From positions 1 through 61,972 of the forward strand of contig CAZJYC010000005.1 in the NCBI GenBank assembly GCA_964550165.1: DNA of 61,972 nucleotides, given 5' to 3'. Each line of letters starts with the position of its first letter. Within the stretch, counting starts at the first letter, position 1. A model generated the notes under the pieces. It had not been told where the DNA came from. It saw only the letters and a program-made list of their open reading frames with translations, and did not search any database. Shown here piece by piece: positions 28,366 to 34,832 of this stretch. The DNA comes from an uncultured Eubacteriales bacterium (GTDB lineage: Bacteria > Acidobacteriota > Aminicenantia > Aminicenantales > Aminicenantaceae). The position numbers were made by a program, and so were the translations under genes.

Positions 28366-28932
28366 ATGGATTATCAAAACGTTATCGATGAATGGAGGCA
28401 GGTTGCCGGAGAATTCTTTGCGGCCAGAGGAGATCTTTTTGAAAAGGTGATAGGCCTCTCGGCCGAGAGCTTAAAAAAGGATCATAAGATTTTGATTTTT
28501 GGAAACGGAGGAAGCGCAGCCCAAGCCCAGCATTTTGCCGCCGAGCTTGTGAATAAATTCTTGAAGGAAAGGGCTCCCCTCCGGGCGATTTCTTTGACGA
28601 CAGATACATCTGCCTTGACTTCCATCGCCAACGACACCTCTTTTAATTTTGTTTTTAGCCGCCAGATAGAAGCTCTGGGCGACCGGGGAGATATCGCCGT
28701 CGGTCTTTCCACAAGCGGCACTTCGCCCAACGTGATCGAAGCCTTAAAAACCGCCAAGACAAGAGGCTTGTTCACCGTGGCCCTGACAGGAGAAGGAGGG
28801 GGGAAGCTCGGACCGTTGGCCGATTATCTCCTCGATGTGCCTTCCAAGAGCACGCCGAGGATTCAGGAGATTCATATCTTGCTCCTTCACCTTCTGGCTC
28901 AGGAAATAGAAAAAAGGATGCAGGCGGTTTAG
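28366..28932 (+). CDS. gmhA: SIS-domain sedoheptulose-7-phosphate isomerase (GmhA / DiaA-like)
   Basis: ILIFGNGGSAAQAQHFAAEL ... DIAVGLSTSGTSPNVIEALKTAKTRGLFTVALTGEGGGKL. Confidence 0.8.
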   Translation: MDYQNVIDEWRQVAGEFFAARGDLFEKVIGLSAESLKKDHKILIFGNGGSAAQAQHFAAELVNKFLKERAPLRAISLTTDTSALTSIANDTSFNFVFSRQIEALGDRGDIAVGLSTSGTSPNVIEALKTAKTRGLFTVALTGEGGGKLGPLADYLLDVPSKSTPRIQEIHILLLHLLAQEIEKRMQAV

Positions 28933-30752
28933 CGATAGCGTCCGAATCGCTCCCGCCGCGGCCTGGATTTGGATTCCCAGAATGTGGCTGGCTTCGCCTC
29001 CGAAGCAGGGCCTTCGGCAACAGCGACGTGAGATTTCCTTTCGCTTCTGTCGATACGGAAGGACCGCTCAGCCGCATAGAGGACTTCATCCCGGAGCCCT
29101 TCAGAAGCGATTTCTTCTGTGAACTTTCGCCTTCCGTCCACCAAGTCTTTGATATAGTGCTGGATTTGCTCCTCAGAATAGTACTTGCGTACATCCCATT
29201 CATCCATGCTTTTTCCTTCACAGGCCTTGATCGCCTTCGTCCCCAAAATACTTTTCTCGTAGTGGTTGGTCCCGCGCAGATCGCCACGCTGAATTTGAGC
29301 CATGAGAGGAATAGGGACGCGGGTCACTTTCCGCACCAGCCTCTTTTTCTTAGCGCCGCCTTCTTCGAATGTCTCGATGATTTCTCCCATGCCGCCTGTA
29401 TTGTACTGCATGAACTTGAGCTTATCCGGGTGGTTGCTGACCAGAGTCATGATGATTTCATAAAAGCGGTTGACTTTTTTTGCCCTGGAGCCGACGATGA
29501 AAGGGTCGGTTCCAACGGTGCGCACGGATTCTCCGGCCTTGTCGGGCTGGCTGGCGTAGCTGTGCGTGCTTTCCCCCCAGAGATAGGCTAACACGGCCTG
29601 CTCAGGAGTGAGCTCCTGGGCGAAGCTCATGATCGTGTTTCTTCGGGTGATAAAGGCGAAGATCAGGCCGTCCAGGTCCTCGAGCGGCGGCAGATTGATG
29701 GACTCTGAGTCAATTCCGACCATTTTTCCCTTGATGTTGACCTTGAGTTTTTTCCTTTGGATGACTGCTCTTCCGTTTGCCGTCAGGCTTTCGTCCAGGA
29801 AATCGACATCGCCGCTGGCTTTGATCATCACGTTTTCAAAAAGAGCGGATTTGTCGATTAAGGCATTGTACATCGCCTCCTGGTTTTCTTTTTCGACATC
29901 CGTCTTCACAAAGAAATTGTCTTCTGTTCCCAAGGCCGAACCATCTTTTCTCAAGAAGACGATATCATCCTGAGTGACGAGAGTTTTTTCGCCTCTTCCA
30001 TGGTCAAGCCCAAGCTGGTGGCAGGACCAGGTGGATTTTCCTGTGGCCGAAAGTCCGAAGAGGAAAACGCCGTAGGTTTTAAGCCTGTCGTTTTTGTCTC
30101 TGACCGTAACGATCTTTGTCCCGGCATGGAGGCCGAGCATGCCCCGCTCGTCAGCCGACCACATCGCCTGGCGGAGAAATCCCTTTTTGTCTTCGCCCAT
30201 ATAATCGGTGCCAAGGGCAATGTTGATGTGGCCTTCAGGGAGAGCAAGCACCTGCTGGCGGAGCTGATGCTCTTCGGGGATATGAATCATGATGAACTCC
30301 GGGCCAGGCCGCTTTCCGGGCTTGAATAGAGTTGTTCCCCACATGTATCCTAGCCGGTAGTTGATGGTGTCTGCTTCAGAGACATAGAGGTTACAGAAAG
30401 GGTTATGAGAGTCGTTGTCGCCCATCTGGCGCCGGATATGGTAAAAAGGAAGGGTGCGCAGCAGATGGAGCACCTTTTCCAGTTCCTCCGGCGCATTGGC
30501 AATCAAAGATTTCTGCAACTCTGAGGGGCGGGGCACCCTGACATATTCGCTTCCCAGGTAGACAGTCTTGGGTCCAATCCGGCTGGATATGGCCGATCTC
30601 CAGCCATAAGACCCGTTTTTTGCCCTGACTCCGGCGGCCTTGGCTTTGGATTCGAGCCAGTCAAGGTCCACGCTCTTGATGTTCGGTCCTTTCAGAGCGC
30701 TGGGGAGTTCTTCCCTGAATTTTTTGTATGCGGCTTCGTTATAAATGCTCAT
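28929..30752 (-). CDS. Divergent phosphoenolpyruvate carboxykinase (ATP)-like P-loop protein
   Basis: Kinase-1a-like GVFLFGLSATGKSTWS compares with PckA FFGLSGTGKTTLS. LTPEQAVLAYLWGESTHSYA compares with PckA LTPEQAMYHFLSGYTAK. The PckA Mn-binding His in IGDDEHGW is absent here (TQDDIVFL). Confidence 0.5.
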   Translation of the reverse strand: MSIYNEAAYKKFREELPSALKGPNIKSVDLDWLESKAKAAGVRAKNGSYGWRSAISSRIGPKTVYLGSEYVRVPRPSELQKSLIANAPEELEKVLHLLRTLPFYHIRRQMGDNDSHNPFCNLYVSEADTINYRLGYMWGTTLFKPGKRPGPEFIMIHIPEEHQLRQQVLALPEGHINIALGTDYMGEDKKGFLRQAMWSADERGMLGLHAGTKIVTVRDKNDRLKTYGVFLFGLSATGKSTWSCHQLGLDHGRGEKTLVTQDDIVFLRKDGSALGTEDNFFVKTDVEKENQEAMYNALIDKSALFENVMIKASGDVDFLDESLTANGRAVIQRKKLKVNIKGKMVGIDSESINLPPLEDLDGLIFAFITRRNTIMSFAQELTPEQAVLAYLWGESTHSYASQPDKAGESVRTVGTDPFIVGSRAKKVNRFYEIIMTLVSNHPDKLKFMQYNTGGMGEIIETFEEGGAKKKRLVRKVTRVPIPLMAQIQRGDLRGTNHYEKSILGTKAIKACEGKSMDEWDVRKYYSEEQIQHYIKDLVDGRRKFTEEIASEGLRDEVLYAAERSFRIDRSERKSHVAVAEGPASEAKPATFWESKSRPRRERFGRYR

Positions 30753-30779
30753 CGAAAAAACACATCCCTTCTTATCGAA

Positions 30780-33131
30780 CTATCCTTTCTTGGCCTCGCC
30801 GCTGACAATTTTTTTGATATCCTCGGCTGAGGCAACTCCGCTGTTAAACATATAGCATGTCGAGCTTTCAAGAAGCCTTTCGAAGAAATTCCTCTGCAAT
30901 TCCGCCCTTTCAGGGGTCTTCAGCAGAAGATGGGGATTATAAAAAGGCTGGCTCTTGGCCGGACTGAGGGTCTGTCTCATGCCTATGATTTCTCCGGATT
31001 CGAGAATGCGCAGTGCATCGTCTTTATCCATTTCCACAGAGGGCGGAGAAACAGTATCGGAGCGAAGAATGAATATCCAGCGCAGCGAAGTCCTTTTGAC
31101 ATGCTTGGCCGGCCCCTGGATCCAGTAAGGATCGAGAAGGGCATGGGCATCTTTAGATGCCTTGTAGCAGTAGGGTGAACCACGGTCAAGACGGCAGTCA
31201 TCAAGCCTGAGGCATTCGCTGTTCTGGCAGTCCTCCTTGCGGATGATGACATTCTCGCATTTGCTGTTGTCAAAAAGCGCTGCCAGACGGGCAAAGGATT
31301 CGACAGTGTTGGTCGGCAGGAAGAGCTTCCGTTCAACAGAATCGGCCAGGGCCGCGCCTCCCGAAAAGCGGACAAAGACCGTGTCGTTGGAGTGCAGACG
31401 GAATCGGTCATCCTCGAGGAGGGCAAAGAAGAGCTCAGTTTTTTTGGTGCCCTTGGGGCCGATGAGAACGAGCCCGTTTCCGTCGATATCGGCAGACATA
31501 CCCCTGACAGCGTAGACATTAAACAATCTTTCTGAGACATCCATCACAAGCCCCAGGGCCATGCTCCGCAGTGGAGAATAGTTGTCGGCGTTGACAAGAA
31601 TGCCTGTGTTCGTTTCTGTGTTGTAGTACGCGTGCGGTTCGCGGCCGGCAATGCCGTCAACGGCGTAGATGATGCCGTGCGGCTCTAAATCCGCTTCCAG
31701 TTGAGCCGGGTACCAGTTTTCCATCCAGAAATCGTTCAGATGGGCAATATTGGTCCGCAACTGAACGACAACACCGTTGATGTTGGCATTCCATTCAAAA
31801 TAGTTTTCGTAGCTGAGATGACTTTCCATTTCGGCCACCAGGGCGTCTTTCATCTTGAGCGAGATGCTGGAGTCCATGGGAACGGACTTTTTCCAGCGGG
31901 TTAGGGTGTTGTTCAGGGCAATACGCCTGACCTTTTTGGCCGTCTTGAGGCGGGAAAGGGCATCGATAATCCGGTCCATACCCTTCTCCAGGTTTTCCAT
32001 GGACGTGGCATAGGAGATGCGGATGTAATCGTCAGCGCCGAAGGCATCACCGGGAACGATGGCCACTCGTGCCTCTCTCAGAAGGTAGTAAGCCATTCCG
32101 TAGGAGTTTCGAATCTGGATATTGTTGAATTCTTTATCATAGTAATAGGAACAATTGGGGAAAAGATAGAATGCGCCCTGGGGCTTGAAGCAGGAAACAT
32201 GGGAAATAGTCTGAAGTCTCATTAAGAGATAATTCCTCCGTCTCTGGAATTCAGCCGTCATCCTGGAGACATCATACTGGGGTCCGGACAAGGCTTCCAG
32301 GCTTGCTTTTTGCGAGATGGAGCAGGGATTGGAGGTGGTATGGCTCTGGACTTTGGCCATGGTGTCGATGATTTCTGCCGGACCGGCCGCAAAGCCTATG
32401 CGCCACCCGGTCATGGAGTAGGATTTTGAGACCCCGCTGATGAGGATAGTCCTTTTTTTGATTTCCTCTCCCAAGGAAGGAAAACTCACAAAACGGAAGT
32501 CGTCGTAGATGATTTTGCTGTAAATTTCATCGGCGATAACGAGGATGTCCTCGTCGGGAATGATGTCAGCCAGGGCTTCCAGCTCGTGTTTTTGGTAAGC
32601 GGCACCTGTGGGATTGGCGGGGTTGTTGAGGATTAAGGCCTTGGTTGCGGGAGAAATAGCATCCTTGAGCTGGTCTGGGGTCAGGAGAAAGCCGTTTTCC
32701 TCCTTGGTCGGGATGATGACAGCTTTGCCTTTGGCCAGCGCCACAGCCTGAGGGTAGGTGACCCAGTAGGGTGCAGGGACGATGACTTCATCGCCTTCGT
32801 TGACAACGGACTGAATGAGGTGGAAGAGGGAGCTTTTTGCGCCCGTGGAGACGATGATTTCGTTCCTGGCATATCTCAGGCTAAAATCTTCACTGAGCCT
32901 GGTGATGATGGCTTCCTTCAGGGCTGGGATTCCCTCGGTTTCTGTGTATTTGGTGAAATTCTGCTCGATGGCCCGGATGCCAGCAGTTTTGATGTGTTCG
33001 GGCGTGGGGAAATCCGGCTCTCCAACGCTGAGGTCGACGACATCGATTCCTTCCGCCTTCATCGCTTTGGCTTTGGTTGTAATTTTGAGTGTCGGAGATG
33101 TGCCGATTTGATTAGCCTTTTCTGATATCAT
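30780..33131 (-). CDS. Fusion protein: class-I aspartate/aromatic aminotransferase (N-terminal, about 400 aa) plus a PEPCK/HprK-like P-loop domain (C-terminal, about 380 aa)
   Basis: N-terminus DLSVGEPDFPTPEHIK...SKSYSMTGWRIGFAAGP, with the PLP-Lys context. C-terminus ...GNGLVLIGPKGTKKTELFFALLEDDRFRLHSNDTVFV, whose layout parallels the kinase core of the neighbouring PEPCK-like protein (GVFLFGLSATGKSTWS...TQDDIVFL). Confidence 0.55.
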   Translation of the reverse strand: MISEKANQIGTSPTLKITTKAKAMKAEGIDVVDLSVGEPDFPTPEHIKTAGIRAIEQNFTKYTETEGIPALKEAIITRLSEDFSLRYARNEIIVSTGAKSSLFHLIQSVVNEGDEVIVPAPYWVTYPQAVALAKGKAVIIPTKEENGFLLTPDQLKDAISPATKALILNNPANPTGAAYQKHELEALADIIPDEDILVIADEIYSKIIYDDFRFVSFPSLGEEIKKRTILISGVSKSYSMTGWRIGFAAGPAEIIDTMAKVQSHTTSNPCSISQKASLEALSGPQYDVSRMTAEFQRRRNYLLMRLQTISHVSCFKPQGAFYLFPNCSYYYDKEFNNIQIRNSYGMAYYLLREARVAIVPGDAFGADDYIRISYATSMENLEKGMDRIIDALSRLKTAKKVRRIALNNTLTRWKKSVPMDSSISLKMKDALVAEMESHLSYENYFEWNANINGVVVQLRTNIAHLNDFWMENWYPAQLEADLEPHGIIYAVDGIAGREPHAYYNTETNTGILVNADNYSPLRSMALGLVMDVSERLFNVYAVRGMSADIDGNGLVLIGPKGTKKTELFFALLEDDRFRLHSNDTVFVRFSGGAALADSVERKLFLPTNTVESFARLAALFDNSKCENVIIRKEDCQNSECLRLDDCRLDRGSPYCYKASKDAHALLDPYWIQGPAKHVKRTSLRWIFILRSDTVSPPSVEMDKDDALRILESGEIIGMRQTLSPAKSQPFYNPHLLLKTPERAELQRNFFERLLESSTCYMFNSGVASAEDIKKIVSGEAKKG

Positions 33132-33157: not shown

Positions 33158-34564
33158 TTATTTCTCTTCTTTTTCTTCAGGAGAGAATTTGTCTTTGAGA
33201 TATTTCTTCAAGTCCACTCCGGTCAGGGACTTGACAACTTCGGGCATTTGAGCCAGAACTTCTGCCACCTGGGAGGTGATTTTGGTCGTTCCTAAATTTT
33301 TATCCCCTCCGACGACGACAATTTTATCTACTTTGGACAGAGGCTCGGAGATGGCTCTAGCCAAATCAGGGAGTATCTTGAGGTACATTTCAAAAAGAGC
33401 GGCCTGGTTGTATTTCTGCCAGGCGTCAGCCTTTTTCATCATCGCCTCAGCCTCAGCCAGGCCTTTTTGCTTGAGCTCCTCTGCGGCAGCCTCGCCCTCA
33501 AGTTTCAGCGCCTCGGCTTTCCCTTTGGCCTCAGCCAATATGCGGTATTCTTCAGCTTCTGCCTCGGCCTTGAGCTGGTATTTCCGGGCATCGGCTGGCT
33601 TGACGACCGTGGATTCGAGCTCTTTCTGTTTGCGGGCAATTTCCAATTCCTCAATCTTTATCGCCTGTTCTCTCTCGATAAGCATGACCTTGGCTTCTTC
33701 CTTCTTGATGTCCTGGGACATTCTGAAACGCTCGAGTTCGTAAGAGAGGTCTGCCTGAGCCTTTTTCTGGTTGACTGCAACCTGTGATTCGGCTTTTTTG
33801 CCTTCATTCTCCCACTGGGCTTTGGCGATCAGAGCTTCTGCCGCAAGCTTGGCAACCTCTGCTTCTTTGCGGGCCTGAGACGATTTGATCGTGGCTTCCT
33901 TCTGAGTCTCGGCTTCTGCGATCGCCGCATCGCGCTTGGCCGCAACGATTTGAGGCTTGCCGAGGGCATCCAGGTACCCTTGCGTATCGCTAATGTCTTT
34001 GAGGGCAAAGGACATCATGGTCAAGCCCATTCGGGAAAAGTCCTTCAGGGTTGCCTCTGTGACCTTAGCCGAAAATTCTCCTCTTTTCCTATAAATATCG
34101 TCTGCGGTCATGTTGCCGATGACCTCCCGCATTTTTCCCTCGAGGATGGTCACCGAAACGTCCCTGATCCCTTCCTTTCCCAAACCTAAGAATTGCTCTG
34201 CAGCCAATCGGATGGAATGGTCGGAGGAGTCGATCTTGACCTGGGCTGTGGCTTCAGCCATGATGGGCACACCGCCATTGGTCAGTACTTCAGGAGTCTT
34301 GATATTCAGGGTGATGACTTCCATAGGCAGGAAGTTGACGACTTCGAGGAAAGGCAGGACAAAAGTTCCACCGCCGAGACGATAGCGGTAGCCGATTTTT
34401 CTTTTTGTGCCATCCGGCTCGATGACAGTCCTTTTTCTTCCGCCGGAAATAATAAGGACTTCATTGGGGCCAACTTTCCGGTATTGTTTGGCCAAGAGAA
34501 GAATGACCAGGGCTAAGACAACGACTATGATGCCTATTATGACGAGTTGAGTGATGAGGGCCAT
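33158..34564 (-). CDS. floT: Flotillin-like SPFH/band-7 protein with a long coiled coil
   Basis: N-terminal TM MALITQLVIIGIIVVVLALVILLLA. SPFH domain. Ala/Glu/Lys-rich coiled-coil heptads. Start taken at the ATG at 34564, preceded by AAGGAGGTG. Confidence 0.8.
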   Translation of the reverse strand: MALITQLVIIGIIVVVLALVILLLAKQYRKVGPNEVLIISGGRKRTVIEPDGTKRKIGYRYRLGGGTFVLPFLEVVNFLPMEVITLNIKTPEVLTNGGVPIMAEATAQVKIDSSDHSIRLAAEQFLGLGKEGIRDVSVTILEGKMREVIGNMTADDIYRKRGEFSAKVTEATLKDFSRMGLTMMSFALKDISDTQGYLDALGKPQIVAAKRDAAIAEAETQKEATIKSSQARKEAEVAKLAAEALIAKAQWENEGKKAESQVAVNQKKAQADLSYELERFRMSQDIKKEEAKVMLIEREQAIKIEELEIARKQKELESTVVKPADARKYQLKAEAEAEEYRILAEAKGKAEALKLEGEAAAEELKQKGLAEAEAMMKKADAWQKYNQAALFEMYLKILPDLARAISEPLSKVDKIVVVGGDKNLGTTKITSQVAEVLAQMPEVVKSLTGVDLKKYLKDKFSPEEKEEK

Positions 34565-34832
34565 CGCCACCTCCTTGGAATCCTCCTCTTTAAAGGGAGG
34601 ACTCAAATATGAGAATCACCATTATAATTATTTATTTTCTTTTTTTAAAGACCTTTTCCTGGGCGAATAACATGTTCTTTTCGATATGGAAAATCATGTT
34701 AAGGATCTCGGAGTTTCGAATGACTCCTTACATAACTCAGGATTGAAGTTTTCTGGAGGATTGGGTCTTCGCTTACGGCAACAGTCATTCTTGGACATGG
34801 AAAATGGAGATGTCCCAAGAGATCGGTGTTGG

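Follow-up and report, generated by a model that had tools for sequence, protein, structure and literature searches.

Gene Organization of the Locus

The window, i.e., the whole 61,972-nucleotide stretch of Aminicenantes DNA analyzed here, contains two long ORFs, designated A and B, which lie behind a flotillin/Band_7 gene in the co-oriented string flotillin–A–B (Table 1). The flotillin gene is located 26 nt upstream of A and is probably the first gene of a transcription unit shared with A and B. A sigma-70-like promoter match precedes it; six promoter-like sites were observed in the region against 4.2 expected, which makes this match weak evidence. A and B share a reading frame, with one TAG and nine codons between them, and the spacer contains AAGAAGGGA, a purine-rich, Shine-Dalgarno-like sequence. 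An earlier note on this DNA had reported both ORFs at these positions and quoted the motifs GEPDF, SKSYSMTGWR, LVLIGPKGTKKTELFFALLEDDRFRLHSNDTVFV, GLSATGKST, and LTPEQA from them, all of which are present.

Table 1. Positions of the genes, domains, and motifs of the locus in the window.
Feature	Position	Strand	Description or basis
Promoter match TTTAAA-17-TATAAT, sigma-70-like	34621..34649	minus	just upstream of the flotillin start
Flotillin/Band_7 gene	33158..34606	minus	ORF; Band_7/Flot Pfam labels in syntenic loci
ORF A	30780..33131	minus	783 aa
A aminotransferase domain (residues 1–395)	31947..33131	minus	PF00155 over its full length
A motif GEPDF (residues 37–41)	33009..33023	minus	
A GAK99SS	32829..32843	minus	
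A PLP-Lys motif SKSYSMTGWR (residues 235–244)	32400..32429	minus	
A C-terminal domain (residues 396–783 plus stop)	30780..31946	minus	compact two-lobed PEPCK fold
A Arg543 (R148 of the domain), at the PEPCK Mn-ligand His232 position	31503..31505	minus	MAFFT: AVRGMSA vs SMHCSAN
A variant P-loop IGPKGTKKT (residues 557–565; LVLIGPKGTKKTELFFALLEDDRFRLHSNDTVFV)	31437..31463	minus	alignments
A Cys-rich insertion, C625, C635, C640, C646, C655 (SKCENV...CQNSECLRLDDCRLDRGSPYC)	31167..31265	minus	after ENV strand; alignment
A–B spacer, 27 nt	30753..30779	minus	sequence and translation
ORF B	28929..30752	minus	607 aa
B P-loop GLSATGKST (residues 233–241)	30030..30056	minus	
B TQDDIVFL (residues 260–267)	29952..29975	minus	
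B motifs TDYMGEDKKG (182–191), GLHAGTK (207–213), FFVKT (280–284), TANGRAV (324–330), LTPEQA (381–386)			

The Aminotransferase Half of A

Residues 1–395 of A matched PF00155 with an E-value of 2.4e-74 and 251 bits (gathering cut-off, 19.7) over profile positions 2–361 of 361, which bears out the earlier reading of this half as an aspartate-type aminotransferase (AspAT). The closest PDB match was the AspAT 1J32 (5e-105), followed by other AspATs and prephenate aminotransferases, and the PLP-binding Lys of A (sgvsKsysmtgwR) aligned with that of 1J32 (sgfaKtyamtgwR). A aligns over its full length with the class Ib AspATs (Phormidium lapideum 1J32, Thermus thermophilus 1BJW, and the bacterial and plant aspartate/prephenate aminotransferases; E-values of 1e-105 to 1e-88); like them, it has the PLP-Lys motif and, in the G-G/A-K motif, the Lys that recognizes the distal carboxylate in the Thermus AspAT. 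The NCBIfam cut-offs for aspartate transaminase were not reached (NF004769, 434 against 617; NF041091, 405 against 550). As judged from these alignments, residues 1–395 are a class Ib AspAT, with a predicted specificity for aspartate, prephenate, or another substrate. Unlike the other members of this class, A has a 9-residue insertion (YYYDKEFNNIQ) and carries a 388-aa C-terminal PEPCK-like domain.

Such a chain could in principle be an artifact of a frameshift or a misassembly that merged two distinct genes, one of them for an aminotransferase, and a small number of public assemblies do annotate it as two pieces (L002, 289 + 482 aa; L091, 344 + 428 aa). However, in every one of the 73 Aminicenantes species genomes with a complete aminotransferase part, both halves lie in one uninterrupted reading frame, intact ORFs of 778–783 aa occur in the inspected genomes, and full-length proteins of 779–817 aa are on record. 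These comparative data refute an artifactual origin, to which we attach practically no credence.

ORF B as a Divergent PEP Carboxykinase

The earlier note had described B as a relative of ATP-PEPCK, and the profile and structure searches agree: B matched PF01293 (1.8e-26, 93.3 bits; gathering score, 26.5), E. coli Pck by hhalign (97% probability), and ATP-PEPCK structures by Foldseek (E-value of ∼1e-25, TM 0.72–0.75). Public sources likewise name the homologs of B PEPCK (ATP). The best NCBIfam model was NF006821 (4e-85, 286 bits against a cut-off of 369, residues 28–558), and the score against the PckA equivalog TIGR00224 was 35.5 bits, below its cut-off of 590. Compared with ATP-PEPCK (PckA), B is only ∼17% identical to the solved structures (phmmer E-value of ∼1e-8 over 150 residues), has DDIVFL for DDEHGW, contains additional insertions, and ends in a C-terminal tail of 50 aa. 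The motifs QDD-[IV]-x-F, LHAG-K, and T-x-NGR of the NF006821 (PRK09344.1-3) subfamily are common to B and to the C-terminal halves of the archaeal proteins described below; our literature search found no experimental study on this subfamily.

From the structures of E. coli Pck, we take K213, H232, and D269 to be the Mn ligands. B keeps K189, K190, H209, K239, D263, K283, and R328, which correspond to K212, K213, H232, K254, D269, K288, and R333, and R58 of B is probably the equivalent of R65, with a register uncertain by one position. These are the residues on the published active-site list of E. coli Pck (R65, K212, K213, H232, K254, D269, K288, and R333; PMC13147460), and the His of IGDDEHGW is not on that list (PMC13147460). 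In B, the canonical (L)IGDDEHGW is replaced by VTQDDIVFL, which retains DD but not EHGW; the same holds for every B-type relative seen. The earlier note was right that this His is absent, but the Mn-binding role that it assigned to the residue is not supported, and K190, H209, and D263 are all retained in B. Among 22 homologs of B, the catalytic residues vary little or not at all, and the adenine-pocket region is partly conserved, with R478 kept and Met as the equivalent of T455. The possibility, named in the earlier note, that B is an orthodox PckA with intact residues therefore applies to the residues but not to the sequence. We classify B as a deep-branching ATP-type PEP carboxykinase, and its retention of the residues listed for E. 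coli Pck suggests that it is probably catalytically active and the working enzyme of the locus.

The C-terminal Domain of A

The C-terminal domain of A (residues 396–783, ∼390 aa) has a two-lobed PEPCK fold. No Pfam family matched it at E ≤ 10, and its sole NCBIfam match was TIGR00679 (E = 0.069). Searches with this half of A gave 160 homologs at E ≤ 1e-3 (best, 8.6e-217); these matches, like the Pfam matches of the aminotransferase half and of B, go far beyond chance. The domain is a member of a small family without a Pfam or NCBIfam model, which we dubbed “mini-PEPCK”; no paper on a compact PEPCK-fold family was found in our literature search. The family is related to that of B (hhalign, E = 9e-5), and in both a DD-[IV]-V-F strand replaces DDEHGW. 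Within Aminicenantes, the domain and the aminotransferase part are equally well conserved (70–82% identity). In comparison with ATP-PEPCK (PckA; E. coli 1AQ2/1OEN, T. cruzi 1II2; PF01293), it is ∼130 residues shorter, has no Pfam match, contains a Cys-rich insertion, and has its Mn and oxaloacetate (OAA) ligands replaced. Each Cys of the insertion is kept in 57–65 of 67 fused homologs, and the alignment contains no such insertion in canonical PEPCK, in B, or in the archaeal N-domains; that it binds metal is only a guess.

The domain had been called HprK/PEPCK-type. The PEPCK part of this label holds and the HprK part does not: HPr kinase/phosphorylase (PF07475, TIGR00679; HprK-related kinases A and B) was rejected because HprK spans less than half of the domain, whose N-lobe and whole architecture are PEPCK-like rather than HprK-like. 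NDUEG2, a PEPCK-like accessory subunit of respiratory complex I in Euglena gracilis (8J9H), is 11% identical; it is a eukaryotic part of complex I, with no sign of common descent with the domain of A beyond the fold.

Residue equivalences were taken from a MAFFT alignment with E. coli Pck, i.e., from aligned sequences rather than superposed coordinates, and family statistics from 67 aminotransferase-fused homologs. The P-loop of A retains K254 and T255 as K564 and T565, and G253 has become Lys563; the Walker-A pattern GxxGxGKT thus reads GPKGTKKT, with the Lys and Thr present and the third Gly replaced by Lys. Among the 67 homologs, the K254 equivalent is Lys in 54, Arg in 10, and another residue in 3; that of T255 is Thr or Ser in 54; and that of G251 is always Gly. 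The equivalents of D269 (Asp, 62/67) and E282 (Glu, 66/67) are also kept. Other positions have changed. The H232 equivalent is Arg in 63 of the 67 homologs and in 10/10 archaeal N-domains, and His in 17/17 intact stand-alone relatives; that of K288 is Pro in 45/67, and that of R333 is His in 28 and Arg in 20. A itself has S523, R543, and D583 at the Mn-ligand positions K213, H232, and D269, and S416, N517, P606, and H663 at the substrate positions R65, Y207, K288, and R333. Only D269 and K212 (the latter as Arg) are retained.

The 17 intact stand-alone relatives all have K/H/G/K/[ST]/D/D/[RK]/R at the catalytic positions, whereas these positions vary in 13 aminotransferase-fused and 10 archaeal N-domains, which group together in a crude NJ tree (no support values); the P-loop Lys is absent altogether in some members (e.g., P0241, P0067, and P0254). 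Positions that are invariant in the stand-alone relatives and drift in the fused and archaeal clades form a pattern of relaxed catalytic constraint. With Arg for the Mn-ligand His and other residues for K213, K288, R333, and Y207, the fused domain makes an implausible candidate for a second kinase that uses OAA, and the covalent route from aspartate through OAA to PEP on A alone, which the earlier note had considered, is unlikely. We infer that the domain has most likely lost carboxykinase activity and is a pseudoenzyme-like module, which may still bind a nucleotide or phosphate.

With the P-loop Lys/Thr and the D269-equivalent Asp retained, the domain might also act on a substrate of another kind, as a kinase or otherwise. 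A truly bifunctional A would have an active PEPCK-like domain, working as a carboxykinase that is metal-independent or assisted by Arg, or else phosphorylating the product of the aminotransferase, so that PEP or another phosphorylated product would be formed from aspartate on one chain, with B as a second isozyme. The complete fold, the conserved P-loop, Asp, and Glu positions, and the high conservation of the domain are consistent with this, and the metal or Lys functions might be taken over by Arg543 and the additional P-loop Lys563. However, the replaced Mn ligands (His232 and Lys213), the replaced OAA/PEP-binding residues (Arg333 and Tyr207), the Pro at K288, the drift described above, and the members without a P-loop Lys argue against activity, and we consider a bifunctional A quite unlikely.

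Conservation of the Fusion and Its Neighborhood

The pairing of a transaminase with a PEPCK-like protein, on which the earlier note had built its candidate module, recurs across genomes and phyla. Of 80 Aminicenantes species genomes, 76 were informative for the downstream gene, and in 62 of these B lies directly downstream of the fusion. B is missing, at the locus itself, from 14 Aminicenantes genomes whose downstream flank extends for 2 kb or more, as well as from one Zixibacteria locus. The flotillin gene is directly upstream of the fusion in 72/72 informative Aminicenantes genomes. Outside Aminicenantes, orthologs of B (58–63% identity) are adjacent to the fusion or close to it in Latescibacteria, Calditrichota, and two other lineages, where the C-domain of the fusion is only 43–47% identical to that in the window and the gene orders differ (an NDK gene inserted between the two, a divergent orientation, or a second copy). 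B-type PEPCKs of ∼545 aa also occur alone, without a neighboring partner.

A second arrangement joins the same two families in one chain. Approximately 95 clusters of proteins of 880–910 aa (P0254 among them), from Asgard archaea, Bathyarchaeia, and other archaea (which account for most of them) and some bacteria, combine an N-terminal, eroded mini-PEPCK domain with a C-terminal NF006821-type PEPCK, the latter scoring 416 bits, above the cut-off of 369. The N-domains of these archaeal “double PEPCKs” (∼900 aa) are homologous to the C-domain of A (29–33% identity over ∼350 aa), have the same His-to-Arg change, and, after one another, find the 783-aa aminotransferase fusions as their next-best matches. 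In the window, unlike in the archaeal proteins, the eroded domain is joined to an aminotransferase and not to a PEPCK, and the archaeal N-domains lack the 5-Cys insertion.

These data bear on whether A and B form a functional module at all. The linkage of flotillin (72/72), which has no evident metabolic link, is tighter than that of B, and some of the linkage may thus stem from inherited synteny. If it were nothing else, B would be a housekeeping PEPCK within an inherited block of flotillin–fusion–PEPCK–GmhA–acyltransferase; this whole block is indeed syntenic across Aminicenantes, B can be cleanly absent from it, and the homologs of B are plain PEPCK (ATP) in public sources. Inherited synteny does not account for the proximity that recurs at 43–47% C-domain identity with a differing gene order, nor for the independent domain fusion in archaea that joins both families, and we therefore regard the absence of any module as very unlikely.

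The PEPCK-like domain might instead act independently of B, as an autonomous sensor or regulator of AspAT activity or oligomerization that binds ATP/ADP, PEP, OAA, or phosphate, with the adjacency reflecting only a shared pathway. The 14 Aminicenantes genomes and Zixibacteria retain the fusion with no B next to it, and the nucleotide-binding elements are kept. Furthermore, an artificial single chain of the C-domain of A, the natural 10-residue spacer, and B was modeled by AF2, with the archaeal fusions supplying the paired alignment; pLDDT was 85.8 but pTM only 0.62, about as for two well-folded bodies without confident mutual placement, and docking is therefore not supported by this model. 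However, a B-independent sensor leaves unexplained both the fusion of this eroded domain to a B-type PEPCK in ∼95 clusters, mostly archaeal, and the repeated presence of B orthologs next to the aminotransferase fusion in distant phyla, where the gene order is rearranged. We consider this explanation unlikely, if less so than the bifunctional one.

A Proposed Partnership between A and B

We propose that A is an AspAT fused to an eroded, non-catalytic PEPCK-fold partner, with a docking or regulatory role, of the working B-type PEPCK, and that AspAT is thereby coupled to B; we put the probability of this reading at about one half. Two lines of evidence fit a pseudoenzyme partner: the catalytic positions are strict in the stand-alone branch and relaxed in the fused branch, and the domain is associated with B-type PEPCKs both by fusion (∼95 clusters) and by position (adjacent in 62/76 Aminicenantes genomes, adjacent or near in four loci of other lineages). 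Because the eroded domain is fused to a B-type PEPCK in the one case and B orthologs lie beside the aminotransferase fusion in the other, a non-catalytic partner of B is the most likely identity of the domain. The eroded C-domain of A would then act as a docking or regulatory subunit of B, and the putative physical pairing of A and B would tie AspAT to PEPCK in this organism. OAA would pass between the reactions Asp + 2-oxoglutarate ↔ OAA + Glu and OAA + ATP ↔ PEP + CO2 + ADP, in a direction of flux that is conjectural, as is the channeling itself. An operonic coupling of AspAT and PEPCK, with B supplying the carboxykinase, is plausible. This suggests an undescribed enzyme–partner module linking aspartate, oxaloacetate, and PEP.

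A broader interpretation is offered tentatively, as one that we would sooner doubt than accept. Compact PEPCK folds that have lost catalysis might constitute an undescribed pseudoenzyme family of dedicated partners for a deep-branching PEPCK, fused to the kinase in archaea and to AspAT in Aminicenantes, Zixibacteria, Latescibacteria, and Calditrichota. The bacterial proteins would then form an AspAT–PEPCK metabolon in which oxaloacetate is handed over directly between transamination and the (de)carboxylating phosphoryl transfer, possibly organized in flotillin microdomains and modulated through the P-loop and the five Cys residues.

PEPCK belongs to the PEP–pyruvate–oxaloacetate node and is among the best-studied enzymes of central metabolism, yet the compact family has no Pfam or NCBIfam model. 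Should the domain nevertheless prove active, it would represent an enzyme of the PEPCK fold in which Arg takes the place of the Mn-ligand His, a mechanistically unusual case. If the eroded domain does partner the divergent PEPCK, the two would be a clear prokaryotic enzyme–pseudoenzyme pair at this node, and the ∼900-aa “PEPCK” annotations in metabolic reconstructions of Asgard archaea and Bathyarchaeia would need rereading. In that case, uncultured peptide degraders such as Aminicenantes and their relatives might couple the use or synthesis of aspartate to PEP while sparing free, unstable oxaloacetate.

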